From contig OZ360255.1 of assembly GCA_977017645.1 (NCBI GenBank), positions 34,658,001 to 34,722,000 of the forward strand: a stretch of DNA of 64,000 bases, in the 5' to 3' direction. The stretch is from Torpedo marmorata. Lineage: Eukaryota. Both the position numbers and the translations under genes were made by a program. Below, piece after piece: positions 6,753-63,231 of this stretch (its first letter is position 1; every line of letters starts with the position of its first letter). The notes beneath the pieces are model-generated. The model had not been told where the DNA came from and searched no databases. It worked only from the letters and a program-made list of their open reading frames with translations.

Positions 6753-7660
6753 TCAGGAAACGTATTTCTGAATGAACTGAAATACAGAGCAGACGGAATA
6801 TTTTACCGCGCTCTTCAACTCTTCCCTGAACTTTGACTGGGTTGCTGCATAAATAAACGTGTTCGTGCAGCAGTTCAGAGTTCGCAGCAAGTATCCGACA
6901 AAGTTAAAGACCATTTGTGATTCATTTTAGTTTCCACCAATCCCTGCGACTCGAGAATAAATGAATTCAAAAACGTTCGTCATCCACACGAAGAGAAAGC
7001 TGCCGGAGATTGTGATGAGTAAAAGCACAGACCTCCTCCTGCCCTCCATCTCCGGATTACTGCGGTTCTCCCCCTTGTTTTGACCTATCAGCCCCTTACG
7101 GACCCGATTGGCCACAACAATATGTCTGATTGTCAGACCGTTGAACAGCAGGATTACAATGAAAGGAAGGAATGGATTTAAACACTTATCGAACCACTGA
7201 AATCCGAACCATCCAGGGTCAGTGTAAATGCTCAGCTTCACTTGACAGAACCAGGGCACATTATCAATAAATTCCAACGGTTCGAAAAAAAAGTAGAATG
7301 GAACGTTTTTCGGAAAGAACAGAACGGCAGTTGCTGCCAGAACCACAGCCGCAGTTCCACCAGTGCAATATTTTGCTTTTAACTTCAGGCAACAGATGGC
7401 GACAAAGCGGTCAAACGTGAGGAAAACGGTGAACCAGACCGAATAGTCCGTTGCTGCACGAGCGAGAACATGTAAAACACTGCACACGGGGGTGAGATGC
7501 AGGAAACTTATTGGGAAGTAGTGGAATTTGATCCGACTGAAAATAACTTCAGTAATGATCACCATTAGATCCGCCGTTGCCATGGCCACCAGGTAGCGAG
7601 TGGTGCAAATGGAGAGGCCGCACTTTCCCCGGGACAGGATGACAATCGCCACTAAATTCA
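6753..7660 (-). pseudogene. GPR139/GPR142-like GPCR copy A, exon 2, with premature stop
   Basis: Acceptor ttttgtctag|TG at 7661/7660. NLVAIVILSRGKCG...FDRFVAIC. TAA at 6927-6929 where copy C has GAA. The frame continues through NCCTNTFIYA to the ancestral TGA at 6753-6755. Confidence 0.9.
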
Positions 7661-8139
7661 CTAGACAAAATGAAAAGGACCGACAATCAGAATGAAAAAT
7701 TCAATATTATTTCGCCCAAACCGAAGTTCATGAAGCCTCACACATACCCATGCCTTCACCTTCTCCGGAAAATAACCACGAGATAATGAAAACGGGGATG
7801 ACGGGCTGTGAGGGTGAAATTAGCAGGCGACCACACACAAAAGCACGATTAAGGTTCCAAGGACGCCAGCAGAAGCCTGGTGATTAGCTTCGGCGATACG
7901 ATAAATGAAGTGATTAAGTAGACAGTTCATACCCATGTTCCCAAAACCTTGCGTGGACAGGACCGATGCTCCCTTTTAGTAACACACTGTCAATGAACGT
8001 TACCAATGTAAACTCCCCTATTGAACATTTCAATAGTGCTTCCTGCTCTGATATTACCCACAGCAGTGGATATGTCCTGCAAAAGGTAGTAACGCTTTTC
8101 TCGGGGTTCCATTGACCAGCAGAGATTTGCGTTCATTCC

Positions 8140-8398
8140 ATTTTTAAGTTAGATATACAACACGGTCACAGGTGCTTCCCGCCCACGACACCGAGCGTTT
8201 CGAATACATGTGACCAACTAGCCGACTGATCTGGTAAATTTTAGGAATGAAAGCTAAAACAGCAGCACCCAAAGGAAACTCCTGCAAGTCACCAGGCGGG
8301 AGAGAAGGGATAAATTCCTAACACAAAGCTTCGGATTCGAAAGCGGTTGCTCGCACTGTAATAGCACTGCCCGACCCGCTCCGCTTCCCGTGTCTGCC
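8140..8398 (-). mobile_element. Decayed tRNA-derived SINE in the copy A intron (paralog ~60480-60737)
   Basis: tRNA-like head (gctattacagtgcgagcaaccgctttcgaatcc on the minus strand). Confidence 0.5.
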
Positions 8399-8724
8399 TT
8401 AATGTACTTCTTGTTGACAATGTAATGAAGTAGAATGTTGATTCAGGAGATGAATGTTAACACACAGATGTTGCTGTTCATCATGGAACATGAATTTCCG
8501 AAAGCTGTGTGCGTTTCACAAACAGCAGAGGCAAATCAAGGAAAGAACAATGCAGAGGAATAGAAGAAAGAGTGGGCAACTCAGCGTCTGTCATTCAATT
8601 TGCTCAAGCGTGATCCTCCATGCCGACACCATGTTGCAATCCAGACTTCCTCTCCCCTTCTTTTTCTACACCCACTCTCTCCCTCTCCGTCTGCTTTCTC
8701 TCTCTCTACTGTCTCTGTCTTTGT

Positions 8725-8888
8725 NNNNNNNNNNNNNNNNNNNNNNNNNNNNNNNNNNNNNNNNNNNNNNNNNNNNNNNNNNNNNNNNNNNNNNNNNNNN
8801 NNNNNNNNNNNNNNNNNNNNNNNNNNNNNNNNNNNNNNNNNNNNNNNNNNNNNNNNNNNNNNNNNNNNNNNNNNNNNNNNNNNNNNNN
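8725..8888. other. N run (gap or masked low-complexity) beside a CT-rich tract
   Basis: Ns preceded by (CT)n. An equivalent N run lies at the same site in copy 2 (60999-61287). Confidence 0.95.
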
Positions 8889-9569
8889 TCCATATACCGT
8901 TTGACGAGTTTAGATATATTATTCTTTCATGTTACTGAATTTCGTTGACCTGGCTTCCAACCATTTTCTTTATCAGGCTTCCACGTGCTTTCCTTTGCTC
9001 GAGTTTTCAAATAATTTCTCTCTCACAGACTCCAGGGCTTGATGTGCTCAATGCAGTGTGACCGCAGCCTTGTGACCCACCCACCAATTATTCAACCTCT
9101 CGCGTCCTGGCAGATATCCAGAAAGTTGTATGACCGCCTCCCTGGCTCTCAACGCCAGAGAAACAAGACTTAGTCGACCACAGACCATCCGACTGTTGCG
9201 ATTCCTTCCGAAATTCAGGTGGCGAACACACTCTGAATATCACATTTCGTTTTCTATCCTGACGGAGAAAATGAGCTTCAATCCAAAACACAGTGCAACA
9301 TATGGTTTTCATCAATGACCTGCACAACGGTTATCACGATTCTTTGCATATTGATTCTTATGCACCAAACTTTAGAACGCATTTCCTTCTTACCTCCAAT
9401 GACTCGTTATCATTTTACACGCTATCCTCTGCATGACACGATAAGGAAAGCCACCGAATACCACAATTTGCACCTGTTATACCTGACCTCTCCCTCCAAG
9501 TTAGGTCTTTTTAAAACTGCGGAATTTTAAAACATGATTTCTAATTTTAAATTTACACGTGCTTCGCGG

Positions 9570-9772
9570 TAATAGGCCCTTCTGGACTACGAGCACTTGC
9601 CCCCAAATGCACCAATTAACCTGCAGCCTCAGTGCGCTTTTGAAGGGTGGGAGGAAACCGGAGCTCCCGGGTGAACCCACGCAGACACGGGGAGAATGAA
9701 GAAGCTTTTTACAGACGGCGCCGTATTGCGCTGTAATAGTTTCGCACTAAAGACCACGCTTACCATGCCGCA
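9570..9772 (-). mobile_element. V-SINE-like element (paralog ~61995-62198)
   Basis: gggaggaaaccggagctcccgggtgaacccacgcagacacggggagaatg matches the vertebrate V-domain in reverse, with a tRNA-like head at the right. Confidence 0.7.
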
Positions 9773-9949
9773 CACGTTCATAAATGACTCTCATGAATTC
9801 ATGTTAACTTTGCGGAACCTCTCCGTCCATTTAAAATGAAGGGCTTAAACTACCTTCTGACCCAAGGAAGTTTGGACGATGGAAACAAAGTTTTCCATTA
9901 TTTCAATGGCTACTCTTATAGGATACCTTCTGCAGATACATACAACATT

Positions 9950-10515
9950 TAACACTACAGCACAGTACAGACCCTTCGGCCCTCGACGTTGTTCCGGCCC
10001 ATATATTCCTTGAAAAAATACGAAACCCTCCCTACCCCGTAACCCTCTATTTTTCTTTCATCCATGTGCCTGTCTAGGAGTCTCCTAAATGCCCCTAATG
10101 TTTCAGCCTCCACCACCACCCCTGGCAAGGCATTCCAGGCACCCACTACTCTATGTGTAAAAAACCTAACCCTGATACCTCCGCTAAACTTCTCTCCCTT
10201 CACTTTGTACATACTGTATGTCCTCTGGTATTTACTATTCCTCCCCTGGGAAACAGGCGATGGCTGTCCACCATATCTATGCCTCTCATAATCTTGTAGA
10301 CCTCTATCAAGTCACCTCTCATCCTTCTATGCTCCAAAGTGAAAAGTCCCAGCTCTGATAACCTGGCCTCATAAGACTTATTCTCCAATCCAGGCAACAT
10401 CCTGGTAAATCTCCTCTGCATCCTCTCCATAGCTTACACATCCTTCCTATAATGAGGTGACCAGAACTGAACACAATACTCCAAGGGTGGTCTTACCAAC
10501 ATTAATATAAGTTGC
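9950..10515 (-). mobile_element. CR1 LINE 3' fragment (paralog ~62355-62920)
   Basis: ERMQRRFTRMLPGL, RRMRGDLIEVYKIMRG, FFTHRVVGAWNALP. Confidence 0.9.
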
Positions 10516-10762
10516 ACTGCCCTTCTTCGTTTGCGTGATTACTCACAACTTCTGACAGGTTGTTTGTCGTCGTTTCTGTTCAGAGCGGAGAGCAGCAGCA
10601 GGTCATACTGCTTTCCAACAGTCCAGCGCCGTACGTTAGACCCTGATCCGGGTGTTGACAGAGCTGAGTTCGCATGGCTCAGCCGAAAAAGCGCCGTGAT
10701 CCATGAGAACACGCTAAAGACCTAAACTACTTTAGAGGATGTAAGTAATCGCAGTGAGTTAC

Positions 10763-10829
10763 CAAGAATTCCGATGGCGGCGATGACCACGTACAGTATC
10801 TTCTCCACACTGAGATAACTCTCCCACAT
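10763..10829 (-). pseudogene. GPR139/GPR142-like GPCR copy A, exon 1
   Basis: ATG at 10829-10827 gives MWESYLSVEKILYVVIAAIGIL plus 1 nt. GTAACT donor. The phase-1 join G+TG restores V-NLVAIV. Confidence 0.9.
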
Positions 10830-10989
10830 TTTCTGTGCGAGGCGACGTGTTCCTCTTTGGCAGATTTAATTCCTCCGAATGGAGTTTAAAAGCCATATAT
10901 TCCCGAGATCATATGCCCTTTGGGATCTCCGCTGGGACATTTGGGTTTCAACTAAGTTCAAAATATGTTTGAAAAATGTGAACAAACAA

Positions 10990-11001
10990 TGACGTCAGCT
11001 G
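10990..11001. promoter_or_regulatory. Perfect CRE (TGACGTCA) overlapping an E-box (CAGCTG), ~160 bp upstream of the copy A ATG
   Basis: tgacgtcagctg, conserved in copy C at 63392-63403. Function not shown. Confidence 0.4.
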
Positions 11002-11734
11002 GTCTAATCCCCCGCCGTGATAGGTTGTGAATTCTTCAGTAATTTAATTGAGAAGCGCTGCAACGCTAAAATGTGGCAAGTGCGTGGTGTTAACTGGAAG
11101 CGGTGTTGCTTCAGCAATGGGATATCATTTCATACAAGATCAGACACATCTCTACAGCTCACATCTCTGGCTGACGTCTTTCAAAGTTTGAATTCAGCTT
11201 GGTCATTCCAAATTTAAAGAGGGTTCTCATAGACTCCGTGTAAACTGGATATGTTGGGCGTTCCTTCCTTGCATTTAAAACATATTAATGAACAACAGCA
11301 ATAAGGCTCAAGCCATCAGACCTATGATTGTTTCAAATAATGACCCGTGTCCAAGCGTTGCTGGTGGTCAGACACAACACACTTCATCTGCATAGTCTAT
11401 TGTTGGAATGCACGCACAATTAATTTTCCTCAAACAGATTCAGATGCTCACTCCAATGACCAGCACATAAAAATATCTGTCGGGTTCGGTCATTAATCGA
11501 TGTTACTCTCTGAGACAAATGATGGCATTTGTACGCGGAAAAGATGCAATATATGTTTCCGCACAATCAAAAGGAAATCTCGTGGAAATTACATCTCTGG
11601 GTGAACACGGTAGAAGGAAAGATACTTCAACGTAGATAAATACAGCCATGAAGTAATTTAGGTTGAAACAAAAATATATCTGCAGCATTTAGTTTCACAA
11701 ATTGTGACATCCTCCACAGTTAACGTTCTGACTG

Positions 11735-14164: not shown

Positions 14165-16806
14165 ATTCATGTTGCTTTACCAGGTTAATGTACATGATCT
14201 TTTATGTAGCAAAGGTAGAAATACATAACCGACGTTTCGGTCTTGAGCCCTTCATCATAGTATGATAAAATGCCGGTAGGCGTCCGAACAAAAGAGTGAG
14301 GGGGGAAGGAGGGAGGCAAAGGCAGGAGATGATAGGTGGAGAAAGGAGGGAGGGGACAGCAGCAAAGAGGGGGAGGAGGGATGGCAGGGTATATGGAGAA
14401 AAACAGGAAGGTCAGGTGAGGAGGGAGGGGAAGGGAACGACAAGCAGATTTAGTGGAAAGCAGAAAAGTCAATGTTAATGCCATCTGTCTGGAGAGTGCC
14501 GAGACGGAAAATGAGATGTTGCTCCTCCACTTTACGTGTAGTCTGGGTGGGATAGTACATACGGCCATGGACAGACATGTGAGTGTGGGAGTGTGACCCA
14601 GAATTGAAATGTTTGGCTACTGGGAGGTCGCTGTTGTTGCGGATGGAGAGGAGGTGCTCAGCAAAGCTGTTTCCCAATCTACGACCGGTCTCTCCAATGC
14701 AGAGAAAGCCACAAAGGGAGCACCGGATGCAGTAAATAAGTTCTCTGGATGTACAAGTGAAGTGTAGTTTCACTTGGAAGGCCTGTTTGGGGCCCTGGAC
14801 CGTGGTGAGGGGGGAGGTGTGGGCGCAGGTATTGCACCTCCTGCGGCACAGGGGAAGGTGCCGGGGGTGCGATGGGTGGGGAGGAATGAGTGCACGAGTA
14901 AATCGCGGAGGGAGCGCTCCCTACGGAAGGCCGAGAGGGGAGGAGAAGGAAAAATATGTCTGGTGGTGGGATCCTGTAGTAAGTGCCGGAAATTCCGGCG
15001 GATAATGTGTTGGATGCGGAGGCTGGTGGGGTGGTAGATGAGGATGAGGGGGATTCTATGTTTGTTGAGTCTGGCGGCAGAGGGGGCCAGGGCAGATGAG
15101 CGGGAAATGGAGGGGATGCGGGTGTGGGCTGAGTTGATGTTGGTGGAGGGGAAGCCACGTTTGTGGAAAAGTACAGACATTTCAGAAGATCTGGAGTGGA
15201 ACACGTCATCTTGGGAACAGATGCGGCGGAGGCGGAGAAATTGAGAGAAGGGGATGGAGTCCTTGCAGGGGACAGGGTGTGAGGATGTGTTGTCCAAATA
15301 GATGTGGAAGTTGGAGGGTTTTAGTAAATGTCGGTGGAAAGCTTGTCTCCCGAGATAGAGACAGAGAGATCCAGGAAGGGGAGAGTGTTATCGGAGAAAG
15401 ACCAGGTGAGTTTGAGATTGTGGTGGAAGTTGGATGCGAAGTGGATGAAGTTGACAAGCTCATCGCTGGTGCATGAGGCAGCCCCAATGTAGTCGTCGAT
15501 ATAACGGAGGAGGAGATGAGGGGTCTTGCCTGTGTAGGCTTGCAGCATGCATTGCTCCACAAAGCCCACAAACAGACAGGCGTAGCTGGGACCCATGTGG
15601 ATACCCATGGCTACTCCTTTGATTTGGAGGAAGTGGGATGAGTTGAAGGAGATGTTATTGAGAGTGAGGACAAGTTCTGCCAGGCGGAGGAGGGTGGTGT
15701 TAGATGGTGACTGGTCGGGTCTTTGGTCCAGGAAGAAGCGAAGTGCTTCTGTGTGGGGGATAAAGTTTTAAGGGATTGGATATCCATGATGAAGATAATG
15801 CAGTCCGGTTTAGATAATCTTAAGTCATTGAGGAGATCAGGGCATGTGAGGTGTCGCGGATGTAGGTGGGGAGGGATTGGACCAGGAGAGAAAAGATGGT
15901 TTCAAGGTAAGGTGAAACTAGTTCGGTGGGGCAGGAGCAGGCAGAAACAATGGGTCTGCCCGAATGGGTGGGTTTGTGTATCTTGGGTAGAAGGTAGAAA
16001 CGGGCAGTGCGGGGGTGGGGAAGAATGAGGTTGGTGGCCGTGGAGGGGAGGTGACCGTAGGTGATGATGTCGGAGATGGTGTTGGAGACAGTGGCTTGAT
16101 GTGCTGTGGTGGGGTCCTGTGGGAGGTGTCGGTAGGAGGAGGTGTCTGAGAGTTGTCGACTGGCCTCGGCAAGGTAGAGGTCAGTGCGCCAGACCACAAC
16201 CGCACCACCCTTGTCTGCGGGTTTGATGGTGAGGTTGGGATTGTAGCGGAGAGAGTGGAGGGCAGAGCGTTCTGAGGAGGTGAGGTTGGAATACGAGAGG
16301 GGGTGGTGAAGTTGAGATGGTTGATGTCTCGGCAGCAGTTGGAAATAAAAAAGTCCAGAGTGGGCAGCTGGCCATGGCGAGGTGTGCAGGAAGAGGAAGA
16401 AGGCTTGAAGCGGGAGAAAGGGTCTTGGGTGGGGGGTGGAGAGTCACGGTCATGGAGGTGAGCATGGAGGCGGAGGTGACAGAAGAAGAGTTCGGCATCT
16501 TGGCGTGCACGGAACTCGTTGTGGTGTTGGCGGAGGGGGACGAAGGTGAGGCCTCTTCTGAGGACGGAGCGTTCCGTCTCAGAGAGGAGAATTTCGGAGG
16601 GGATAGTAAAAACTAAGCAGGGGTTAGAGTGGAGATCGGTGTTGTGGAGGGTGTTGGTGGGAGGGGGAGTGTTGAGGAGGTCAGAGGGGGGAGTTGGAGG
16701 GTGGGGGAGGTTGGAGGGAGGGGGAGGGGGGATCGGAGGGGAGAGGTGTGCGGTAGGGGAGGTAGGAAGGTGGGAGAGAGGGGTAGGGAGGGTGGCCAGA
16801 GAGAGC
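14165..16806 (-). mobile_element. Penelope-like element (RT + GIY-YIG), frameshifted, with pLTR remnant
   Basis: RYIDD RT motif (15321..15608). GIY-YIG FTCTSRELIYCIRCSLCGFLCIGETGRRLGNSFAEH (14450..14773). Degenerate hammerhead-like motif at 14227-14264. Confidence 0.9.
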
Positions 16807-18340
16807 GAGATTCACCTTCGGAGTCGTCTGCGCGACCATAGTGGTTGGATCCGCCAAATAGGAGCCCATAATGTTCCCCTGTCCAAGGTAGTCAGCACCC
16901 GACAATACCGGGTGCCTGGGGGCAGTAAGCAAATCACGGAATCAATTGACGCATTATTGCGGGAGGGAGTCATCCGACCTGCCGTCTCCCAATTCAACAG
17001 CCCGGTCTGGCCCGTGCGCAAGAAGAATGGCTCGTGGCGCATTGACCATCCATTACAGGCAGCTAAACAAAGTCGCCCCCCTCACCGGCGCATTTCCTGA
17101 TGTGGTCACTCTGGTGGAGGACATAGGGGAACGTGGGAAGAACCATTGGTCCATCGTTGTCGATTTGGCTAACGCTATCTTCTCCATTCCCCTCAGTCCC
17201 GATTTGCAGGATCAAGTCGCGTTTACGTGTGAGGACATACAATATACAATTTGCCCTCTTCCCCAGGGCGTAGCCCCACGTTCTGTCACTATTTAATTGC
17301 TCGGGACATAATAAAATACATTAGTGTTCCCCCAAATATCTCAGTGCCACATTATATGGACGATGTCCTGCTCCAGCGCCCATCGGAGGAAGCAGTGGCA
17401 CAGACTCTTGACATATGCATTATTGCCCTGCGTGCGCGCGGATGGGCCATTAACATATAAAAAGTGCAGGGTCCTAGTCTAACCTGCTGCCAATCGTTGG
17501 CCACTGCAATCAAATCCATCGTTCAGTTCCTTTTTCGTTCCACCTCAGCAAAGAGGATTTGTTTCAATTGTGGACAATATGGCGACAGGAGATGTCCCTG
17601 CCCATATCTGCAAGTATCCTCGGTACTCCCTCGTCCTCCCAATGTTAGCCGACCTCACATCGTTCTATCACGTTTGCTGCCACCAACCCGGTTACTCAAC
17701 GATTGAAGCGTAAGTTTGCGGTCCTCACATATCTGCCTCATGAAGTAACCATGACAGTTGAAGGAATTTCAGTCCCTTTTATGATTGATACCTCGGCCAC
17801 TGCATCAACCCGAGATCTGAAAATTGCTGAAAGACATTGGTTTCCCTTGATTGAGGATACTGTGACATTGTCGGTGTTCGAAACAGGAAAACGTATTTAC
17901 TCCCGCACGCAGCCACTCATGGTAACATATCAGTATCGGATATATACCCTCCATTTTGCAGTCACTTCAAATTGGGAATGTAATTTAGAAGAACGTGATC
18001 TACTTTCCTTTACAAGTAGAGATTCAAGGCACACATGATGGTATGTCTTTAACTGCATTACCATTGAGACAATATCATGTATTAGCATACCTCAGTGGTG
18101 GGCGTTGGTTTTTCACAGTCAGATTTTAATCCGCCATTGGAAGTATCAAATCGTCATGTTGCTCGTTCTTATGACCGCACAGGCTGTGCATCTGAATTAA
18201 CTAACGACTTTACCCCGGATCATCACACGTCCAACTCAATAGAAATTAGAGGTAAAATTAAATGGAAAGAGGAAAAGACTATTTCGTATCTAATCCACCT
18301 TTCCTTTGGCGAATGACAGGGCTTTTAGTTCCTCAAATAC
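16807..18340 (+). mobile_element. Inverted third copy of the class III RT / class I gag-protease chimera (continues at 22290-22420)
   Basis: ORFs 16946..17296, 17464..17706, 17703..18038 and 18095..18316 match the minus-strand ORFs at 252-1756 and 52825-54434. Confidence 0.92.
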
Positions 18341-29408: not shown

Positions 29409-29915
29409 CAGATCAGTCAGTTTATCATTGACGTTATTTTGTTCTGTTCAAATGATCTGTCCATGTTTTCATATTCATTTCATGTCGAAAACGCGCAATG
29501 TTTGCCAACAAATGTGGCAGACATTGGCCATTAGTGATGCGCAGGTATATGGGAATTGAATCGCTCAATAAGTAGGAATTAACCGCGTGGCAAAAGAGTG
29601 TGAAATGGAGATGTGAGTCTGCAGTTGGTTTAAATATTATTTCTTTGCTGGCAAAAGGTGTCTCTGTATTTTCACCCATCCAGATAATCAGCAATTCTTA
29701 GTTTCGCAATCAAATCTTGGAACTGAGCAAAATTGGTCCCAGCGAGAATTTCCTTTCGCTGTCATCATCGTTAATCCTATTTTTAACTTCTTTTATGTTG
29801 AAATCTTAATGATACACGAAGACTGAGAAGGCTATAAATCTCACGGATGTGTCGGCTCCACAGTTTAAGCTAAAGGATCGTACATCGTAAAGGGAAACGT
29901 CTCTCCAATTAGAAA

Positions 29916-29982
29916 ATGCGCAAAGATTATTTCCGTGTGGAGAAAATATTGTACGTGATCATTGCCGTCATTGGAATTCCTG
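29916..29982 (+). CDS. GPR139/GPR142-like GPCR copy B, exon 1
   Basis: ATG 29916 gives MRKDYFRVEKILYVIIAVIGIP plus G. Canonical GTGAGT donor at 29983. TATAAA at 29833-29838. Confidence 0.92.
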
Positions 29983-32801: not shown

Positions 32802-33772
32802 TGAATTTAGTGGCGATTGTGATCCTGTCCCGGGGAAAATGCGGCCTCTCGACCTGCACCACTCGCTACCTGGTCGCCATGGCGACCGCGGATCTGTTGG
32901 TCATTCTCACCGAGGTCATCTTTTATCAGATCAATTATCATTATTTCCCGTTGTGTTTCCTGAACGTCACTTCTGTCTGCATCGTTCTCCGTGTACTGTC
33001 TCGCATTGTTATAAACTGTTCCGTCTGGTTCACCGTCACATTCACCTTTGATCGATTCGTCGCCATTTGTTGCCAGAAATTAAAAATTAAATATTGCACC
33101 GCGAAAACAGCGACAGCAGTCGTAGCGACAACTGCAATCCTGTTCTGTATGAAGAACGGTCCACTCTACTTCTCTTACGGACCCAGAGTGATCATCAACA
33201 ACGTCCCGTGGTTCTGTTATCCGAAACCAAGTTACTTCACTGACCCCGGGTGGGTGGCGTTTGACTGGTTGGACATCGTGTTAACTCCGTTCCTCCCATT
33301 CGCTGTCATCATGCTGCTCAACGCTTTGACAGTCCGACACATTTTAATGGCCAAACGGGTCCGGAAGGGGCTGAGAGATCAGAGCAAGGGCGAGAACCGC
33401 AGTGACCCGGAGATGGAGAGCAGGAGGCGGTCTATGGTTTTACTTTTCAGCATCTCCGGCAGCTTTGTCCTGCTGTGGCTGACGAATGTTGGAGAATTTA
33501 TCTATTATCAGGTGACAGGAATAGGAACAGGGGGGAATGATTCTGAAATTATTTTCGCCTATTTCGGATACTTACTGAGAAACTTCAGCTGCTGCACGAA
33601 CACATTCATTTACGCCGTCACCCAGTCGAAGTTCCGGGAACAAGTGATAAGGGCGGTGCACAATCCGGTCACCTCAGTCCTTCGGTGCACTAATACAATC
33701 GCGCTGTGGGCGAAGCTCAGAACTGCGCAGAGTCAGGGCTGTAACTCCGGTCAGTCAGCCGCACATTCATAG
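32802..33772 (+). CDS. GPR139/GPR142-like GPCR copy B, exon 2 (spliced product 345 aa)
   Basis: Branch-like ctaat at ~32774, acceptor ttctccttccgcag|TG. MATADL (TM2), FDRFVAIC (TM3), PWFC (ECL2), SCCTNTFIYA (TM7). No disablements. Confidence 0.93.
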
Positions 33773-35596: not shown

Positions 35597-35597
35597 T

Positions 35598-50740: not shown

Positions 50741-52695
50741 ATGCAACAGGTGTCACCGACTTCATCAAGACCTGCGTGGATGAGTGTGTGCCCATGCGCA
50801 CATACCGGGTGTTCCCCAACCAGAAGCCCTGGATGAATAAGATCATTCGAAACCTGCTGAGGGCGAGAACAAGTGCATTTAAGGCCGGGGACCGAGATCA
50901 TTACAAGAAGTCCAGGCACGACCTGCGGAAGGCCATCTCTGAAACAAAATGGCAATTCCGGACGAAGCTTGACACAGAGAGAGATGCACGCCAGCTATGG
51001 AAGGGAGTGCAGGCCATTACAGCCTACAAAGCGAGGGAGAACACAATTGGCGTCTGCTATGCTTCACTACCCGATCAGCTGAACACCTTCTATGCCCGCT
51101 TTGAGAAGAAGAACCAAACAGTGCCTACTAGAATCCCTGAAAAGGCTGAGGACCCTGTGATATCTGTCTCTGAGGGCGACGTCAGAACATCATTCAAGAG
51201 GGTGAACCCTTGCAAGGCATCAGGCCCTGACGGCGTACCTGGCAGGGTACTGAAAATCTGCGCCAACCAACTAGCCGGAGTGTTCACGGAATTCTCAACC
51301 TCTCATTGTGGCAGTCAGAGGTTCCCACCTGCTTCAAAAGGGCATCAATAATCCCGGTACACAAGAATAGTGTGAGCTGCCTCAACGACTACCGCCCAGT
51401 AGCACTAATTTCTACTGTGATGAAATTCTTTGACAGGCTGGCCATGGCCAGAATTAACACGTACCTAAGCAAAGACCTGGACCAACTGCAATTCGCCTAT
51501 CGTCACAATCGCTCCACAGCAGATGCAATATTGCTAGCTCTTCACTCAGCTCTGGATCACCTCGAAAACAGCAATTCATACATACGGCTGCTCTTCATCG
51601 ACTACAGTTCGGCCTTCAATACCATTATTCCCTCAGTGCTGGTCAAGAAGCTACAAACTTTAGGCCTCTGTACACCCCTCTGCAACTGGACCCTTGACTT
51701 TCAAATTGGAAGACCACAGTCAGCACGAATTGAAACCAACGTCTCATCCTCACTGATTATCAACACAGGTGCACCCCAAGGATGCGTGCTTAGCCCACTG
51801 CTCTACTCGTTATACACCCATGACTGTGTGGCCAGTCACAATTCAAATGCCATCTACAAGTTTGCCGATGACACCACAGTTGTCGGCAGAATCACAAACG
51901 GCAATGAGGAAGCGTACAGGAGGGAGATAGATCAGCTCGTTGAATGGTGTAACGACAACAACCTTGCGCTCAACGTCAGCAAAACCAGGGAGATGATTTT
52001 GGACTTCAGGGGGAAGTCAGGGGAACAAGACCCAGTCCTCATCGAGGGCTCAGTAGTTGAGAGGGTCAAGAACTTCAAATTCCTGGGTGTCAACATCTCC
52101 GAGGATCTGTCCTGGAGCCTCCACGTTGATGCAATCAGAAAGAAGGCTCGCCAGCGGCTATACTTTGTGAGGTGTCTGAGGAGATTCGGTATGTCACCGA
52201 AGACTCTCGTAAACTTCTACAGGTGTACCGTGGAGAGAATTCTGGCTGGTTGCATCACTGCCTGGTATGGAGGACAAGATTAAACTCCAGAGGGTTGTTA
52301 ACTCGGCCTGTGACATCACAGGTACCAGTCTTCACTCCATCGAGGACATCTACACGAGGCATGTGTCTTAAAAAAGCAGCCTCTATCCTCAAAGACCCCC
52401 ACCACCCAGGCCATGCCCTCTTCACTCTGCTTCCATCGGGAAAAAGGTACAGGAGACTAAAGACGAGCACTCAACAGCACAAGGATAACTTCTTCCCGGC
52501 TGCCATCAGATTCCTGAATAATCAATGATCCAAAGACACTGCCTTACTTTTCGTGCGCTATATTTTATAATTTTCTTATAGTAATGTCGTAAGATGGTAC
52601 TAATATGAATGTTGCACTATGATGCTGCTGCAAAACACCAAAATTCATGAATTGTTCATGACAATAAATTCTGATTCTCTCTCTGATTCTGATTC

Positions 52696-53710
52696 TTTAA
52701 TTCAGCGTGACTCCAGAAGAGGGTGTCCCGCTCATCAAATTTTTGCCATCCAGTAAGTTGGGCGTTTGCCTATTTGGTGTACCGACTGCTCGTTATCCGA
52801 GATTGGTAGGTCAGTAACCCTTATTCACATTAATAGTATTTGAGGAACTAAAAGCCCTGTCATTCGCCAAAGGAAAGGTGGATTAGATACCAAATAGTCT
52901 TTTCCTTCTTTCCATTTAATTTTACCGATAATTTCTATTGAGTTGGACGTGTGAAGATGCGGGGTAAAGTCGTTAAATAATTCAGATGCACAGCCTGTGC
53001 GGTCATAAGAACGAGCAACATGACGATTTGATACTTCCAGTGGCGGATTAAAATCTGACTGTGAAAAACCCAAAGCCCACCACTAAGGTGTGCTGATACA
53101 TGATATTGTCTCAATGGTAAAGCAGTTAAAGACAAACCATCATGTGTGCCTTGAATCTCGACTTGTAAAGGGAAGGTTGATCACGTTCTTCTAAATTACA
53201 TTCCCAATTTGAAGTGACTGCAAAATGGAGGGTATATTTCCGATACTGATATGTTACCATGACTGGCTGCGTACGGGAGTAAATACGTTTTTCTGTTTCG
53301 AACCCCGACAATGTCACAGTGTCCTCAATCAAGGGAAACCAATGTCTTTCAGCAATTTCCTGATCTCGGGTTGATGCAGTGGCCGAGGTATCAATCATAA
53401 AAGAGACTGGAATTCCTTCAACTGTCATGGTTACTGTAGGTTCTTCATGAGGCTGATATGTGAGGACCGGAAACTTACGCTTCAATCGTTGAGTAACCGG
53501 GTTGGTGGCAGTAAACGTGATAGAACGAGGTGGGGTCGGCTAACATTGGGAGGACGAGGGAGTACCGAGGATACTTGCAGATATGGGCAGGGACATCTCC
53601 TGTCGCCATATTGTCCACAATTGAAACAAATCCTCTTTGCTGAGGTGGAACGGAAAAGGAACTGAAAGATGGATTTGATTTCTGTGCCCAACGATTGGCA
53701 GCAGATTAGA
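52696..53710 (-). mobile_element. Class I ERV gag knuckle, protease and putative 2H domain (upstream part of the provirus at 45450-48340)
   Basis: ORFs 53482..53691, 53126..53485 and 52825..53073. Same strand and correct domain order relative to RT once the LINE is removed. Confidence 0.75.
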
Positions 53711-54735
53711 CGAGGGCCTGCACTTTTTCTATGTTAATGGCCCATCCTCGCGCACGCATGGCAATAATGAATATGTCAAGAGTCTGTGCCAAGGCTTCCT
53801 CCGATGGGCCCTGGAGTAGGACATCGTCGATATAATGTGGCATTGAGATATCTGGGGGAACACTAATGTATTTTTGTATATCCCGAGCAATTAAATAGTG
53901 ACAGAACGTGGGGCTATGCCCTGGAGAAGACGGAAAATTGTATATTTTATGTCCTCACAAGTAAACGCGAATTGATCCTGCAAATCGGGACTGAGGGGAA
54001 TGGAGAAGACAGCCTTAGCCAAATCGACGACGACGGACCAATGGTTCTTCCCCCGTTCTCCTATGTCCTCCACCAGGGTGACCACATCAGGAAATGTGCC
54101 GGTGAAGGGGGCGATCTTGTTTAGCTGCCTGTAATGGATGGTCAATGCGCCACGTGCCATTCTTCTTGCGCACGGGCCAGACCGGGCTGTTGAATTGGGA
54201 GACGGCAGGTCGGATGACTCCCACCCGCAATAATGCGTCAATTGATTCCGTGATTTCCTTACTGCCCCCAGGCACCCGGTATTGTCGGGTGCTGACTACC
54301 TTGGACAGGGGAACATTATGGGCTCCTATTTGGCCGCTCCAGCTACTATGGTCGCGCGGACGACTCCGAAGGTGAATCTCCCCATGTTGGTGCGCACGGA
54401 CTGCCCCTTGAGCAGGTTTATTCCAAAGAAACACTAGGCGGAGTCAGCGACCAAAACAGGAAAGGGTATGGGGTGGTAAATTGCATATGGCTAGGCGGAT
54501 GATAACCTCTCTGGCGGGATTGTGGACCATCCTATACACTCTTCGGAATCTGAGGTCCTCTCCAAACCTCGGGATTATTGGGGATAATCGTGTGTTCGGC
54601 CCCAGTGTCTACTAGTGCCACCCAAGGCTGTGTGTTCCCTTTGACCCAGTGTACCGCTACTGGGATGTACGGCGTCGGGTCGGCCGGCCTGGACAGGATC
54701 GCTGAGTGAATCCGCCGTGTGCCCTGCCCTCTATC
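53711..54735 (-). mobile_element. Class III (ERV-L/S-like) protease-RT fragment
   Basis: QYRVPGG..EITESIDALL..GVIRPAVSQFNSPVWPVRKKNG; HYIDD; KVQ. Confidence 0.75.
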
Positions 54736-57700
54736 CTATGGGAGGCGGGTGGAGGACATTGCATGTGCAACCTAACCAAACTAATACGATCACGTATTTA
54801 CAAACTTGCGTAAATATTATCACTATGTATTGCTCCAGTTCGCCTCCACTGAAGTTAGGTTCACTGGCCTATAATTTCCAGGATTATGTTTTTTTCTTTC
54901 TTGAACAAATTTGAAACATTCGACACTTAACTGACCACGAGATCTTTGTGATGATGGTGAGAATTCAAAGATCTTTATCAAGGACCAAGCAATTTCTGGT
55001 TTTACTCTTTAATACTCACATATTGTATATGCGACCAGGAACAGGTGATGTATCCATCTCAATGCTCCTCAAAACACATAAAAGGCATCTTTTTGATGTC
55101 AAAATGGTAAAATAGAATAGCACACTCCACATTCTGCTCCTTCTCTGTCTTACCCCTTGGAACACCTCAATGCAATCCATTTATTTCGCACATCCACTGT
55201 TGCACGCATATATTTTAAAGTAGTAAAAACAGGATATAAACGAACAGAGCCATATTGTAGCTATATAACATTTTCGTTGCGCAGCACTTGGAATATCGTG
55301 TGCGATGTTCGCTGATCCATTGGAGAAATAACGTTGAGCCTTTGAATACGGAGCAGCACAGATTCACGAGGATTTTGCCAGGATTGAAGGGTGAGGGCTG
55401 TGGTCAAAGGTTCAACAGACGTGGGTGTCATTAATCTTCGGCGACTGAGGAAAGATCTGATAGAGGTTTCTAAGGTATGAGGCACAATTATTGTGGAGAC
55501 AGAACACTTTTATTCCGCGGCAAAACGTCACGGACAAGAAGACATCATTTTGGGTCGTGTGAGTTTAAGTTAGTTGCGGGCGTCATCTTCTTACATGGAG
55601 AGTCGTGTGTGCCTGGAACGGTCTGTCATGTGACGCGGTGGACGCAGATGCAATAGTTGTGTTCATTGGGCTTCTGGATGGACACATGAATATACAATGT
55701 ATGCATCAGGTGCAGAGGTTTACCACATTGTGTAGACATGTGGTCTCAAGGGCCTTTATTACGCCCCAGAACAACACTAATCATCTCCCAAACTGCAGAT
55801 CCTTCTCTGATCGTCCACTTCCAAATTTACCTTTGGTTCCGTCCCTGTCCATTATCCAAGCCCCGCCGTTACTCCTCCTGAATCCCTCACCCCTCACCCC
55901 TCCATCGGTTTGTATTCCTTTCTGCAGCTGCCTGCACCTCACATGACATTCCGTTCAATGCCTCTTTCTCCCGTTTTCTATCTCCCTATTTCCCTCCCGG
56001 ACGGCTCTCTCACGACAACTACTCTTTTTTTCTACGTGGGTCTATCCCTTCCACTTGACCCACTGCACGTACAATATCTTTACAATTACAACTCAACCGC
56101 TCACAGATCCAATCTCACACATATCCTGCACTATTTTACCTCCACTCTCCTGATATTCCTCCAGACCTCCTGAAACACTAGCAGCTCCATTCCAACGATT
56201 CCCGAAACCTGACTCGGCTTTCCAACATGTAACTCTATTCGTAGGGATTGGAAATGAAAAAAAAACAACATGCTATCCTCGCTTAGGTTGCTGAACGGAA
56301 ATGTTCCGCACTGCGAGAAAATCTGAAAAAGCGCGGAAATAAGGTCGAAGTGACTTGGCGATTGTGTCTTTTTTTCGTCGTAGGTTCTTCCTGATGATCA
56401 GAACATGTGAATGTAAATTCCTCAGTTGCATTTCTTTAATTTCGATTCCCATCTTTCATCTTTACATGAGGACCGGGTAAGAATCGGCATGTTATTTATG
56501 TAGTGTGGTGGATGTCGGCAGCTGTGACAATACCCGCATTTGCTCCACTTTGGAGCTTGCACATGCATCAGTCGCTGAGGCAACTACAACAGCCGACGAA
56601 GTTCTGTCCGTAAACCATATCCCTCACTGTTATCCTGAGTAATAGGATTTAGAGTCGATCAGCAAATGACGCCATCGTTGTGAGCAAGTCCTGGCGGTGT
56701 ACATGGCGCTGGAAACATCCAAGCCGCGAATTTTCTGAGTAGTTAAACAATAAAGTCTGCAGATGCTGTGATTTAAATTTATGAAAAAAGTTCCCATGCA
56801 GATTTTGTCCATCTTGGTGGGAGAGGTCGATGTTTCCGGAGGAGATGCAGGAGCTTCTCGCTGGATTAAATGCGGATATTGGTAGATGTTTTCACCTACC
56901 ATTCTACGAAGGAAGTACAGGATTTGACAATGGCACAGGGGAGGTTGATCAGGACGTTGCCTGGTTCAGAGGGAATGAGTAATGGGGAGATACTGAACAA
57001 GATTGTATTGTTTTCTCTGCAGCGTCAATGGCTGTGGGTCGACCGCTTAGCATTTTGCAACGTTATGAGCGCAATTCGCCGGCTGTCAAGTCGTAATCAT
57101 TTTTTCACCGGAGTAAAAGCGACACATTCCTGAGAAAATTAGTTTTATGCGGTATAAAGTAGAAGGACATGCCCAGTTTGTTACACAGAGAGTTGTTGGT
57201 TCATGGAGCGGGTATCCACTGGTAGTGGTGGAAGTGGATATAACAAGAGAGCCGTAGAAACGTCTTGACAGACAGATGGATGTGAAGGGGATGAGCGGAC
57301 ATCAGGTGCGAGCAGCAGAGATATAGTTTGATTTCGACATCATGCTCGGCATAGACACGTGGGGCGTAGAGTCTGTTCCCCTTCGATGTTAAGCCTGTGC
57401 AGAAGTCCGGGTGGCTTTTTGGTGTGAATTCAAACAGCAGTCTGGACAAAAACCTGGGAGCTGTGGGACATGCAGAAAATGGAGACTGCGGGTAGATATA
57501 GTACAGTATTGAACGCACCAGACCTGTTGGACACAATATCACGGAGACCGCGGGTAGTAAATATAATACCAATTATCTATAAAATCGAAGTAAGTTACAA
57601 TATTCCCGGGACATTTTCTACAAGTGAGACGAAACATTGAGAGCATTGGGTGTGACATTGGATATTGTGGGCACGGGCAACATCATAGACACCATGAGTA

Positions 57701-58155
57701 GAGAGTCATTGTCCATGAGTTGTTGTTTACTGCCCTTGGGGACTGAGGATGCCATGATATTCCACGTCGGTTACGCTGGTGGTGGACTATCGGTAGAGGA
57801 CCTGTGGGTCACCATTTTGGGAAGTAATGGAATTTGATCCGACGGAAAATAACTTCAGTATTGATCATCCAAGTGTATTATTTACCTTCTGTTCGAGCCT
57901 CAACTACCATCCCGGAAACGCATTGCAGGTACCCACAACTATCTGATTCAATGTTTTTTGCAGAGCGATAGAGAGTGATGTATGGTGGTCTACAATCTGA
58001 ATTCTAGACGTGAAAGTGTAATGGCCAGGTGAAGATTATCGTAGATCGCAATCTCTGAAAACTATGTGACGCAGGGGATTTTCGGGAACAATTGCATTGA
58101 ATGAAAATGACATAGAGAAGAAACAAGATACAGTACGGCCAACTCAGGGCTGCGT

Positions 58156-59063
58156 TCAGGAAACGTATTTCTGAATGAACTGAAATACAGAGCAGACGGA
58201 ATATTTTACCGCGCTCTTCAACTCTTCCCTGAACTTTGACTGGGTTGCTGCATAAATAAACGTGTTCGTGCAGCAGTTCAGAGTTCGCAGAAAGTATCCG
58301 ACAAAGTTAAAGACCTTTTGTGATTCATTTTCGTTTCCACTAATCCCTGCGACTCGATAATAAATGAATTGAAATAAATTCGTCATCCACAGGAATAGAA
58401 AGCTGCCGGAGATAGTGATGAGTAAAAGCACAGACCTCCTCCTGCCCTCCATCTCCGGATCACTGCGGCTCTCCCCCTTGTTTTGACCTATCAGCCCCTT
58501 CCGGACCCGATTGGCCACAACAATATGTCTGATTGTCAGACCGTTGAACAGCAGGATTACAATGAAAGGAAGGAATGGATTTAAACACTTATCGAACCAC
58601 TGAAATCCGAACCATCCAGGGTCAGTGTAAATGCTCAGCTTCACTCGACAGAACCAGGGCACATTATCAATAAATTCCAACGGCTCGAAAAAAAAGTAGA
58701 AGGGAACGTTTTTCGGAAAGAACAGAACGGCAGTTGCTGCCAGAACCACAGCCGCAGTTCCACCAGTGCAATATTTTGCTTTTAACTTCAGGCAACAGAT
58801 GGCGACAAAGCGGTCAAACGTGAGGAAAACGGTGAACCAGACCGAATAGTCCGTTGCTGCACGAGCGAGAACATGTAAAACACTGCACACGGGGGTTAGA
58901 TGCAGGAAACTTATTGGGAAGTAGTGGAATTTGATCCGACTGAAAATAACTTCAGTAATGATCACCATTAGATCCGCCGTTGCCATGGCCACCAGGTAGC
59001 GAGTGGTGCAAATGGAGAGGCCGCACTTTCCCCGGGACAGGATGACAATCGCCACTAAATTCA
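58156..59063 (-). CDS. GPR139/GPR142-like GPCR copy C, exon 2 (spliced product 324 aa)
   Basis: Acceptor tttttgtctag|TG. Open through FDRFVAIC and NCCTNTFIYA to the TGA at 58156-58158. Confidence 0.93.
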
Positions 59064-59197
59064 CTAGACAAAAAGAAAAGGATCGACAATCAGAATGACA
59101 AATTCAATATTATTTCGTACAACCCGAAGTTGATGAAGCCTCACACATACCCATGCCTTCACCTTCTCCGGAAAATAACCCCGAGATAATGAAAACG

Positions 59198-60067
59198 TCA
59201 CCGAAGACTCTCGTAAACTTCTACAGGTGTACCGTGCAGAGAATTCTGGCTGGTTGCATCACTGCCTAGTATGGAGGACAAGAATAAACTCCAGAGGGTT
59301 GTTAACTTGGCCTGTGACATCACAGGTACCAGTCTTCACTCCATCGAGGACATCTACACGAGGCAGTGTCTTAAAAGAGCAGCCTCTACCCTCAAAGACC
59401 CCACCACCCAGGCCATGCCCTCTTCACTCTGCTTCCATCGGGAAAAAGGTACAGGAGCCTAAAGACGAGCACTCAACGGCACAAGGACAGCTTCTTCCCC
59501 GCTGCCATCAGATTCCTGAATAATCAATGATCCAAAGACACTGCCTTACTTTTTGCGCACTATATTTTATAATTTTCTTATAGTAATGTCGTAAGATGGT
59601 ACTAATATGAATGTTTGCACTACGATGCTGCTGCAAAACACCGAAATTCATGACTTGTTCATGACAATGAATTCTGATTCTCTCTCTGATTCTGATTCTT
59701 TAATTCAGCGTGACTCCAGAAGAGGGTGTCCCGCTCATCAAATTTTTGCCATCCAGTAAGTTGGGCGTTTGCCTATTTGGTGTACCGTCTGCTCGTTATC
59801 CGAGATTGGTAGGTCAGTAACCCTTATTCACATTAATAGTATTTGAGGAACTAAAATCCCTGTCATTCGCCAAAGGAAAGTTGGATTAGATACCAAATAG
59901 TCTTTTCCTTCTTTCCATTTAATTTTACCTATAATTTCTATTGAGTTGGACGTGTGAAGATGCGGGGTAAAGTCGTTAGTTAATTCAAATGCACAGCCTG
60001 TGCGGTCATAAGAACGAGCAACATGAGGATTTGATACTTCCAGTGGAGGATTAATATCTGACTGTTA
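59198..60067 (+). repeat. Intronic copy of LINE tail plus ERV flank (paralog of 52194-53062), bounded by a 65-bp direct duplication
   Basis: Duplication at 59133-59197 and 60068-60132. Only one copy is present in copy A (~7730-7794). Confidence 0.92.
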
Positions 60068-60998
60068 ATGAAGCCTCACACATACACATGCCTTCACCTT
60101 CTCCGGAAAATAACACCGAGATAATGAAAACGGGGATGACGGGCTGTGAGGGTGAAATTAGCAGGCGACCACACACAAAAGCACGGTTAAGGTTGCAAGC
60201 ACGCCAGGAGAAGCCTGGTGATTAGCTTCGGCGATACGATAAATAAAGTGATTAAGCAGACAGTTCATACCCATGTTCCCAAAACCTTGCGTGGACAGGA
60301 CCGATGCTCCCTTTTAGTAACAAGCTGTCAATGAACGTTACCAATGTAAACTCCCCTATTGAACATTTCAATAGTGCTTCCTGCTCTGATATTACCCACA
60401 GCAGTGGATATGTCCTGCAAAAGGTAGTAACGCTTTTCTCGGGGGTCCATTGACCAGCAGAGATTTGAGTTCATTCCATTTTTAAGTTAGATATACAACA
60501 CGGTCACAGGTGCTTCCCGCCCACGACACCGAGCGTTTCGAATACATGTGACCAACTAGCCGAATGATCTGGTAAATTTTAGGAATGAAAGACAAAACAG
60601 CAGCACTCAAAGTAAACTCCTGCAAGTCACTAGGCGGGGGAGAAGGGATAAATTCCTAACACAGAGCTTCGGATTCGAAAGCGGTTGCTCGCACTGTAAT
60701 AGCACTGCCCGACCCGCTCTGCTACCCGTGTCTGCCTTAATGTGCTTCTTATTGACAATGTAATGAAATAGAATGTTGATTCAGGAGATGAATGTTAACA
60801 CACAGATGTTGCTGTTCATCATAGAACATGAATTTCCGAAAGCTGTGTGCGTTTCACAAACAGCAGAGGAAAAGCAAGGAAAGAACAATGCAGAGGAATA
60901 GAAGAAAGAGTCGGCAACTCAGCGTCTGTCATTCAATTTGCTCAAGCGTGATCCTCCATGCCGACACCATGTTCCAATCCAGACTTCCTCTCCCCTTC

Positions 60999-61287
60999 NN
61001 NNNNNNNNNNNNNNNNNNNNNNNNNNNNNNNNNNNNNNNNNNNNNNNNNNNNNNNNNNNNNNNNNNNNNNNNNNNNNNNNNNNNNNNNNNNNNNNNNNNN
61101 NNNNNNNNNNNNNNNNNNNNNNNNNNNNNNNNNNNNNNNNNNNNNNNNNNNNNNNNNNNNNNNNNNNNNNNNNNNNNNNNNNNNNNNNNNNNNNNNNNNN
61201 NNNNNNNNNNNNNNNNNNNNNNNNNNNNNNNNNNNNNNNNNNNNNNNNNNNNNNNNNNNNNNNNNNNNNNNNNNNNNNNNNNNNNNN
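60999..61287. other. N run (gap or masked low-complexity)
   Basis: Ns at the site equivalent to 8725-8888. Confidence 0.95.
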
Positions 61288-63164
61288 TCCATATACCGTT
61301 TGACGAGTTTAGATATATTATTCTTTCATGTTACTGAATTTCATTGACCTGGCTTCTAACCATTTTCTTTATCAGGCTTCCACGTGCTTTCCTTTGCTCG
61401 AGTTTTCAAATAATTTCTCTCTCACAGATGCTTTTCTCTGCTTCATTCATCCACTGCAGCTGCTGATGTGCTCAATGCAGTGTGACCCCAGCCTTGTGAC
61501 CCACCCACCAATTATTCAACCTCTCGCGTCCTGCCAGATATCCAGAAAGTTGTATGACCGCCTCCCTCGCTCTCAACGCCAGAGAAACAAGACTTAGTCG
61601 ACCACTCACACCATCCGACTGTTCCGATTCCTTCCGAAATTCAGGTGGCGAACACACTCTGAATATCACATTTCGTTTTCTATCCTGTCGGAGAAAATGA
61701 GCTTCAATCCAAAACACAGTGCAACATATGGTTTTCATCAATGACCTGCACAACGGTTATCACGATTCTTTGCAAATAGATTCTTATGCACCAAACTTTA
61801 GAACGCATTTCCTTCTTACCTCCAATGACTCGTTATCATTTCACACGCTATCCTCTGCATGACACGATAAGTAAAGCCACCGAACACCACAATTTGCATC
61901 TGTTATACCCAACCTTTCCCTCCAAGTTAGGTCTTTTTAAAACTGCGGAATTTTAAAACATGATTTCTAATTTTAAATTTACACGTGCTTCGCGGTAATA
62001 GGCCCTTCTGGCCTACGAGCACTTGCCCCCAAATGCACCAATTAACCTGCAGTCTCCGTGCGGTTTTGAAGGGTGGGAGGAAACCGGAGCTCCCGGGTGA
62101 ACCCACGCAGACACGGGGAGAATGTAGAAGCTTTTTACAGACGGCGCCGTATTGCGCTGTAATAGTTTCGCACTAACGACTACGCTTACCATGCCGCACA
62201 CGTTCATAAATGACTCTCATGAATTCATGTTAACTTTGCGGAACCTCTCCGTCCATTTAAAATGACCCAAGGAAGTTTGGACGATGGAAACAAAGTTTTC
62301 CATTATTTCAATGGCTACTCTTATAGGATTCCTGCTGCGATACATACAACAAAGAACACTACAGCACAGTACAGGCCCTTCGGTCCACGACGTTGTGCCG
62401 GCCCATATATTCCTTTAAAAATACGAAACCCTCCCTACCCCGTAACTCTCTATTTTTCTTTCATCCATGTGCCTGTCTAGGAGTCTCTTAAATGCCCCTA
62501 ATGTTTCAGCCTCCACCACCACCCCTGGCAAGGCATTCCAGTCACCCACTACTCTATGTGTAAAAAACCTACCCTGATACCTCCGCTAAACTTCTCTCCC
62601 TTCACTTTGTACATACTGTATGTCCTCTGGTATTTACTATTCCTGCCCTGGGAAACAGGCGCTGGCTGGCCACCCTATCTATGCCTCTCATAATCTTGTA
62701 GACCTCTATCAAGTCACCTCTCATCCTTCTATGCTCCAAAGTGAAAAGTCCCAGCTCTAGTAACCTTGCATCATAAGACTTATTTTCCAATCCAGGCACC
62801 ATCCTGGTAAATCTCCTCTGCATCCTCTCCATAGCTTCCACATCCTTCCTATAATGAGGTGACCAGAACTGAACACAATACTCCAAGGGTGGTCTTACCA
62901 ACATTAAAATAAGTTGCACTGCCCTTCTTCGTTTGCGTGATTACTCAGAACTTCTGACAGGTTTTTTGTCGTCGTTTCTGTTGAGAGCGGAGAGCAGCAG
63001 CAGGTCATACTGCTTTCCAGCAGTCCAGCGCCGTACGTTAGACCCTGATCCGGGTGTTGACTGAGCTGAGTTCGCATGGCTCAGCCGAAAAAGCGCCGTG
63101 ATCCATGAGAACACGCTAAAGACCTAAACTACTTTAGAGGATGTAAGTATTCGCAGTGAGTTAC

Positions 63165-63231
63165 CAAGAATTCCGATGGCGGCGATGACCACGTACAGTA
63201 TTTTCTCCACACTGAGGTAACTCTCCCACAT
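63165..63231 (-). CDS. GPR139/GPR142-like GPCR copy C, exon 1
   Basis: ATG at 63231-63229 gives MWESYLSVEKILYVVIAAIGIL plus 1 nt. GTAACT donor. Confidence 0.92.

Follow-up and report, generated by a model that had tools for sequence, protein, structure and literature searches.

The window analysed here, a stretch of 64,000 nucleotides from the ray Torpedo marmorata (C78:34658001-34722000 of the 6.22-Gb assembly, C numbers being its contigs), contains three class A G protein-coupled receptor (GPCR) genes, hereafter A, B and C, amid retroelement remnants. These genes are members of a real and very large receptor family, cartilaginous-fish-specific class A GPCRs on the scale of olfactory receptors (ORs), whose ancestor was a single orphan within the wider GPR139-related group. 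Judging from sequence, we give a probability of about 0.5 to the reading that the family would serve as a chemosensory repertoire, in which many pockets are combined with a single common signalling face. The family is apparently undescribed in print: no paper describing it was found by searching for GPR139, GPR210 or orphan-GPCR expansion in sharks and cartilaginous fishes, a search with most subscription journals outside its scope, and it goes unmentioned in the keyword-matched passages of elasmobranch genome preprints, a catshark sensory paper and a review. Its genes are present in public annotation under the misleading name "probable GPR139". What this analysis adds is the larger family count, the identity of the sister group, selection specific to loops, the near-neutral evolution of the local array and an element in the promoters.

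Family size and integrity

Genome-wide, a pattern for the first intracellular loop (ICL1) signature in exon 2 gave 860 exact matches against 0 for its reversed control, and a second pattern, independent of the first and taken from the exon 1 end plus splice donor, gave 2,254 against 0 for control. An earlier note, made from the window alone, had suspected a birth-and-death cluster from an expanded family; with these counts, and about one third of the loci broken, the family goes far beyond that guess and is anything but a few copies. A family exon 2 was found within the stretch fetched for five of seven exon-1 matches (four open, one frameshifted), while the other two had none within ~5.5 kb. 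On C39 up to 12.74 Mb, there were 43 exon-2 matches, 21 of them with an exon-1 match, and 84 exon-1 matches; scaled up, this overlap gives a union of ~2,700 loci and a rough capture-recapture estimate of ~4,600, assuming that the region is typical.

Integrity was scored on the first 100 exon-2 matches (C5 to C74): 32 were broken, and of the open ones 66 had an AG acceptor and 2 lacked it. Taking two thirds of 2,250-2,700 loci, the genome would hold 1,500-1,800 open genes, an extrapolation from exon 2 alone. Many of the loci are recent copies, since 134 open sequences collapse to 40 clusters at 90% identity and 29 at 80%. The family lies on at least 14 large contigs rather than on one chromosome and, like chemosensory repertoires, it is large and clustered, with pseudogenes and birth-and-death turnover.

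Duplication patterns were also seen outside the window. The same receptor gene pair, with a spacing of ~56 kb, occurs on six small scaffolds (C121, C173, C180, C377, C387 and C393) and may represent a large repeated unit or an assembly artefact; simple haplotype doubling cannot explain it, because there are more than two copies, while assembly inflation could. A near-identical two-gene cassette, a pseudogene and its neighbour ~6.5 kb apart, is found at the start of C31 (0.15 Mb), near the end of C52 (89.4 Mb) and on the small scaffold C1109, which suggests subtelomeric exchange.

Ancestry and relation to GPR139

A search with the gene C protein returned 1,512 proteins at E ≤ 0.001. Among the 120 matches listed, the named ones were all from sharks and rays and were nearly all labelled "probable" or "putative GPR139", the "probable GPR139" label being the one used by NCBI; ESM Atlas clusters bear the same automatic name. 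Together with family members named in further listings, they cover at least 20 elasmobranch species. One of ten further representatives looked up by name came from the chimaera Callorhinchus milii, and a chimaera member implies a family age of >400 million years. In a profile search (30 of 150 listed matches looked up by name), the best full-length matches below the family block were salamander, coelacanth and teleost proteins. The salamander protein has its relatives in amphibians and sturgeon, with about one cluster per species (21 non-elasmobranch clusters).

In phylogenetic trees, which contained no GPR142 sequence, the family forms one clade (Shimodaira-Hasegawa-like approximate likelihood ratio test, SH-aLRT, 94; ultrafast bootstrap, UFBoot, at least 97), with the amphibian/sturgeon orphan (P0229 group) as its sister clade (SH-aLRT 100; UFBoot at least 98). 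SH-aLRT values come from a quick tree and UFBoot values from a smaller bootstrap tree whose labels were shifted by one node on rerooting, hence "at least". Subfamilies are common to sharks and rays, and a clade uniting the family with GPR139 was rejected (approximately unbiased, AU, test p = 0.004; constrained tree from a fast search). The family and its sister are ~30% identical and keep the same cysteines, and two ray loci of the coelacanth and teleost orphan types (P0230 and P0259 groups) share the family intron. All these orphans differ from the ray family in number, with about one cluster per species against thousands of loci.

The true ray GPR139 gave a single match in the genome, on C56 and separate from the family loci, so the main chromosomes do not look doubled. 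The two further single loci are the coelacanth-type (frameshifted) and anchovy-type orphans, and all three have the intron at the family's position. This shared phase-1 intron before the Asn of transmembrane helix 1 (TM1), together with mutual best similarity, places the family within the wider GPR139-related orphan group; three short-contig proteins (P0016, P0096 and P0389) start at or inside exon 2 and give no evidence of splicing. The coelacanth-type locus (C45:108.05-108.06 Mb), a single ray ortholog of the coelacanth/teleost orphan with 52% identity, is disrupted by a frameshift in TM3 and a stop codon close to TM7, and is either a pseudogene or an assembly error. The anchovy-type locus (C25:87.69 Mb) is open and single-copy, groups with the anchovy protein and keeps F3x33, H5x43 and R6x51. 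GPR210A/B have been named near GPR139/142 in coelacanth, gar and fishes, with sharks unmentioned in the relevant passages (PMC6504862), and the amphibian/sturgeon, coelacanth and teleost orphan groups are possibly these genes.

GPR139 and GPR142 are described as class A orphans activated by L-Trp and L-Phe (PMC5430874), and the earlier note had tied the window's genes to them as aromatic amino-acid receptors. That tie is not upheld. The family is only 20-23% identical to GPR139, and at the Trp/Phe pocket positions F3x33, H5x43, W6x48, R6x51 and N7x38 given by PMC5430874, gene C has R, D, W, N and Y. Across 29 subfamilies, F is found in 3 (Y in 9), H in 0, W in 28, R in 2 and N in 3, i.e., H5x43 and N7x38 are mostly replaced. 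Cysteine C3.25 and the cysteine of extracellular loop 2 (ECL2) are each kept in 27 of the 29, whereas GPR139 is reported to lack this TM3-ECL2 disulfide (PMC5430874). Because only W6x48 is general and the cysteines are kept, binding of Trp/Phe in the GPR139 mode appears unlikely. An origin as copies of GPR139/GPR142 was rejected: the family is a separate clade in trees that included GPR139, most of the pocket residues are lost and GPR139 itself is another locus.

Conserved inner face and variable outer face

The family matches PF00001 at 71 and 57 bits (cut-off 30.5), and the class A residues N1.50, D2.50, R3.50, P5.50, W6.48 and N7.49/Y7.53 are conserved in 27-29 of 29 subfamilies. In the AlphaFold2 model of the electric ray protein P0001 (predicted local distance difference test, pLDDT, 75), seven helices are formed, ECL2 folds as a hairpin and the N-terminus hardly extends beyond TM1. 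A fold search gave generic peptide-receptor matches with flat scores (template modelling score ~0.55-0.6, GPR139 at rank 13), which inform no further than class A; the best sequence match in the PDB is GPR139, at 37.7 bits.

Across the 29 subfamilies, identity is 63% on the inner face and 37% on the outer face, and the ratio of replacement to silent substitution rates (omega) is 0.21 and 0.33, respectively, among 10 deep representatives, so the conserved inner and variable outer faces proposed earlier hold between subfamilies. When genes B and C are compared, the identical positions number 119 of 160 on the inner face and 67 of 127 on the outer (Fisher p = 0.0002): the inner side is indeed more alike, although "near-invariant", as the earlier note had put it, was an overstatement.

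Recent selection differs among arrays. In the subfamily found on C39, C45 and C74 (27 members), parsimony counts of replacement to silent changes are 78:7 in ECL1 and 90:8 in ECL2, and codon models give omega = 2.44 for ECL1 (twice the log-likelihood difference, 6.9), 3.49 for ECL2 (15.7) and 0.31 for the inner face; these loop regions were picked after the counts had been seen, and gene conversion lies outside the codon models. The C79 array (29 sequences, chosen by score) has omega = 0.46 overall, 0.31 on the inner and 0.61 on the outer face. A variable ligand face with a conserved signalling face is thus found between subfamilies and in the C79 and C39/C45/C74 arrays, and not in the window's own array, where evolution is near-neutral; diversifying selection was seen in one subfamily elsewhere in the genome. 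The C39/C45/C74 subfamily is also distinct in having an ECL1 that is 12 residues longer and a short intron of ~0.9 kb, and it is interspersed with other subfamilies over 13 Mb.

The window's genes and their array

The features of the window that concern the receptors are as follows, with site names (CRE, for cAMP response element, Ebf and homeodomain) assigned from what we take to be their consensus motifs.

6753..7660, minus strand: gene A exon 2, a C-type pseudogene with TAA at codon 267 (6927-6929)
10763..10829, minus strand: gene A exon 1, 67 nt, from ATG to a phase-1 GT donor
10909..10997, minus strand: gene A proximal promoter, with CRE-like octamer (10990-10997), Ebf-like decamer (10928-10937) and weak TATA-like box (10909-10915)
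29737..29838, plus strand: gene B promoter, with TATAAA (29833-29838) and weak homeodomain/Ebf-like element (29737-29746)
29916..29982, plus strand: gene B exon 1, 67 nt
32802..33772, plus strand: gene B exon 2, open, B type, 345 aa once spliced
58156..59063, minus strand: gene C exon 2, open, C type, 324 aa once spliced
63165..63231, minus strand: gene C exon 1, 67 nt
63311..63399, minus strand: gene C promoter, with CRE-like octamer (63392-63399), Ebf-like decamer (63330-63339) and weak TATA-like box (63311-63317)
3..11590, no strand assigned: duplicate copy 1, carrying gene A, 94-97% identical to 52564-64000 in four aligned pieces
52564..64000, no strand assigned: duplicate copy 2, carrying gene C, with a repeat unit of ~51 kb

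The gene models of the earlier note were borne out: genes A, B and C each have two coding exons spliced at GT..AG, the first being 67 nt long and the phase-1 intron falling directly ahead of the TM1 Asn, and one of the three carries a nonsense codon, which falls in ECL3 of gene A such that TM7 and helix 8 are lost. There are three genes as claimed, but not three independent paralogs, since A and C are identical at 313 of 324 residues. Because these two are near-identical and sit inside a duplicated block of ~11.5 kb (94-97% identity), the window holds two receptor types rather than three. The DRF and NTFIY motifs and the absence of the TM6 proline were likewise found in all three genes. As a mark of sensory receptors, these motifs were rejected, since they are not special to the family: NFFLY stands in ray GPR139, the coelacanth orphan combines ERF with the lack of a TM6 proline, and that proline is retained in several subfamilies of the family itself. 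The missing NPxxY proline says nothing on sensory function because it is common to GPR139 and the outgroups.

The array around the window comprises 26 exon 2s across 0.80 Mb, 13 of B type and 13 of C type, which alternate almost strictly (a C + B cassette) apart from one inversion near the window. Exon 2 is open in 21 of the 26, and the open copies are 96.1-99.8% identical within a type and 71.5% identical between types. Gene B clusters with skate protein P0008 and gene C with P0001, the electric ray protein (82% identical), so both types are of old origin and it is just their amplification that is young. No RNA record was listed for exon 2 of gene C, which counts neither for nor against its expression. 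Omega is 0.81 for nine C-type and 0.93 for twelve B-type sequences, neither different from 1, and changes are spread evenly over the protein. This even spread with omega near 1 is an outcome that the earlier note had itself named as counting against its reading. Pocket diversification within the array was accordingly rejected, and the earlier claim of a variable pocket and conserved face is not borne out inside it. The array is probably a young expansion, nearly neutral, of two old types of receptor and would add copies more than specificities. Partial extra copies of exon 2 occur just upstream of intact C-type exons at C78:34028124 and C75:41571897.

Promoter architecture

For 29 genes, including one outgroup gene, an exon 1 of 55-73 nt (91 for one candidate start) that ends in the same donor phase was identified, and TATA-like boxes occur in 19 of the 29 upstream regions vs 7.2 in shuffles. 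Of 17 promoters (one per subfamily), 9 carry a homeodomain-like hexamer and, after it, a degenerate Ebf-like decamer, at 99-114 bases before the ATG. A matrix built from the nine sites scored 6.64 in 11 held-out promoters vs 1.09 ± 0.87 in shuffles (0 of 200 as high), with the best site inside the expected window in 7 of 11, where 1.8 were expected. This homeodomain/Ebf-like element, which precedes the TATA box, appears to be genuine in about half of the subfamilies. Within the window, the Ebf-like decamer of gene C lies at -108 with a weak homeodomain part, while the gene B element is more distal upstream than in most subfamilies.

Other motif searches gave less. A 12-base Gibbs motif did not beat shuffles (10.27 vs up to 10.28), and an 18-base motif was modestly above them (12.28 vs ~11.1; 6 shuffles, fewer restarts). 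CRE-like sites at about -170 are found in 6 of 29 promoters vs 1.1 in shuffles, in a set that includes redundant copies. In the same set, ETS, NF-kB, IRF, RUNX, GATA and octamer motifs, in their consensus forms, are not enriched over shuffles.

Candidate functions

Cartilaginous fish have only ~10-50 known ORs despite large olfactory organs, a count so low that it is otherwise met only where the nose is degenerate, and in catshark all olfactory neurons express Go and TRPC2 (PMC10116579). Over two thousand class A loci bear directly on this paradox of few known receptors and large organs. If the family is chemosensory, the homeodomain and Ebf-like element upstream of the TATA box would switch on each gene in some of the sensory neurons only, the microvillous olfactory neurons being the most plausible. 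The inner face that the members share would couple to one G protein, of the Go/Gi or Gq class, and the varied pocket, ECL1 and ECL2 would detect different ligands in the water; peptides or derivatives of amino acids are likelier here than Trp/Phe held in the GPR139 way. The element has the site order of the mouse Lhx2/Ebf composite probe (PMC5608512), and homeodomain plus Olf/Ebf (O/E)-like sites are given as hallmarks of OR regulators (PMC8213819).

Like ORs, and like trace amine-associated receptors (TAARs), the family consists of hundreds to thousands of clustered class A genes with birth and death and a variable pocket, and it may share with them homeodomain and O/E-like sites in promoters or enhancers (PMC8213819, PMC5608512). 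Its ancestry is different: at E ≤ 0.01, family members match PF00001 only, with no OR (7tm_4) or TAAR Pfam match, and their coding region is split by an intron instead of being intronless, so they are not odorant receptors in the established sense. A bolder form of the chemosensory reading, possible though in our view doubtful, is that of a fifth, independently evolved olfactory receptor family, with at least 1,500 intact genes in this genome, an Lhx2/Ebf-type promoter code and one gene per neuron, doing the job of ORs in bony vertebrates. If true, it would overturn the idea of sharks and rays relying on no more than 10-50 receptors for smell.

Several observations weigh against a chemosensory role. 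Factors of the Ebf and homeodomain classes have roles in other neurons and in B cells as well. The promoter element was picked out by eye and is absent at the expected place in 8 of the 17 training promoters; a second held-out set of 7 promoters scored 2.02 vs 1.08 (31 of 200 shuffles as high), which is not significant; the perfect Ebf palindrome occurs in 0 of 29 promoters; and the spacing differs from the mouse Lhx2/Ebf composite by about one base. Six of seven subfamilies counted have no significant outer-face excess of replacement changes, and the window's own array lacks the inner/outer contrast in omega (few changes). Copy number may be inflated, because 761 of the 860 exon-2 matches fall on contigs from C74 onwards, which include many small scaffolds. 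Finally, the olfactory neurons of catshark have already been shown to express type 2 vomeronasal receptors (V2Rs; PMC10116579).

Among other accounts, the family could serve innate immunity or the surveillance of barriers, with receptors on leukocytes or epithelial sentinels sensing microbial or damage peptides, in analogy to formyl peptide receptors (FPRs) or mast-cell MRGPRs. Rodent MRGPRs and FPRs are, like this family, lineage-specific tandem expansions of a non-olfactory class A orphan; they have a short N-terminus and degenerate activation motifs and are used in sensory neurons and immune cells. They number tens of genes rather than thousands and gave no sequence matches to the family, and MRGPRs lack the TM3-ECL2 disulfide, which the family keeps. 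Omega values of 2.4-3.5 confined to ECL1/ECL2 among recent paralogs would resemble host-pathogen diversification, the disulfide and ECL2 hairpin are as in peptide receptors, and an Ebf-like site also fits B cells. With positive selection in only one of seven subfamilies counted, and none of the immune-type motifs (ETS, NF-kB, IRF, RUNX, GATA and octamer) enriched in the 29 promoters, we consider a surveillance role rather unlikely.

Passive copy number, i.e., some 50-200 receptor types riding in segmental duplications with some copies being assembly duplicates, is partly compatible with chemosensory, immune and germ-line roles alike. It fits the window's array (96-99.8% identity within type, omega near 1), the gene pair recurring on six scaffolds, the collapse of 134 open sequences to 40 clusters and the 32 broken loci in 100. 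As the explanation of the family as a whole it is quite improbable, however: other arrays evolve under purifying (C79) or diversifying (C39/C45/C74) selection, subfamilies are common to sharks and rays, a single GPR139 match indicates no apparent doubling of the main chromosomes, and copy number does not account for the retention of ~30 or more old subfamilies. Ampliconic germ-line receptors, acting in testis or sperm for gamete guidance or recognition or amplified by reproductive conflict, would fit the near-identical segmental duplications and, with TATA boxes and CRE-like sites at about -170, CREM-driven spermatid genes, but are very unlikely, since the CRE-like site is confined to a minority of promoters, mostly of one related clade, and the loci are distributed among at least 14 large contigs instead of one chromosome. 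Some catshark V2Rs are reported as testis-enriched (PMC11979771), which also speaks for a germ-line role.

Should the family prove immune or germ-line rather than chemosensory, it would still rank among the largest vertebrate GPCR expansions, similar in size to the 1,948 elephant ORs cited in PMC11979771. The family also draws attention to its unstudied sister receptor, whose deorphanisation would be feasible in a laboratory model, since frogs and salamanders have it.

Insertions and retroelements in the window

The gene C intron holds an insert of ~870 bases (59197-60065 vs 7726-7794), 96% identical to 52193-53062, that gene A lacks. A pair of retroelement copies at 18629-22082 (minus strand) and 24506-27478 (plus strand), 90% identical over 3.2 kb, is inverted about another insert, and the plus-strand copy retains an open stretch of 990 codons; we take the pair to be L1-like and the insert between them to be RTE-like. 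Broken protease, reverse transcriptase and integrase fragments resembling long terminal repeat (LTR) retroelements lie at 556-1870 (minus), 16480-18035 (plus), 53129-54443 (minus) and 45819-46430 (minus). The first three are ~94% identical, and two of them travel with the duplicated block.

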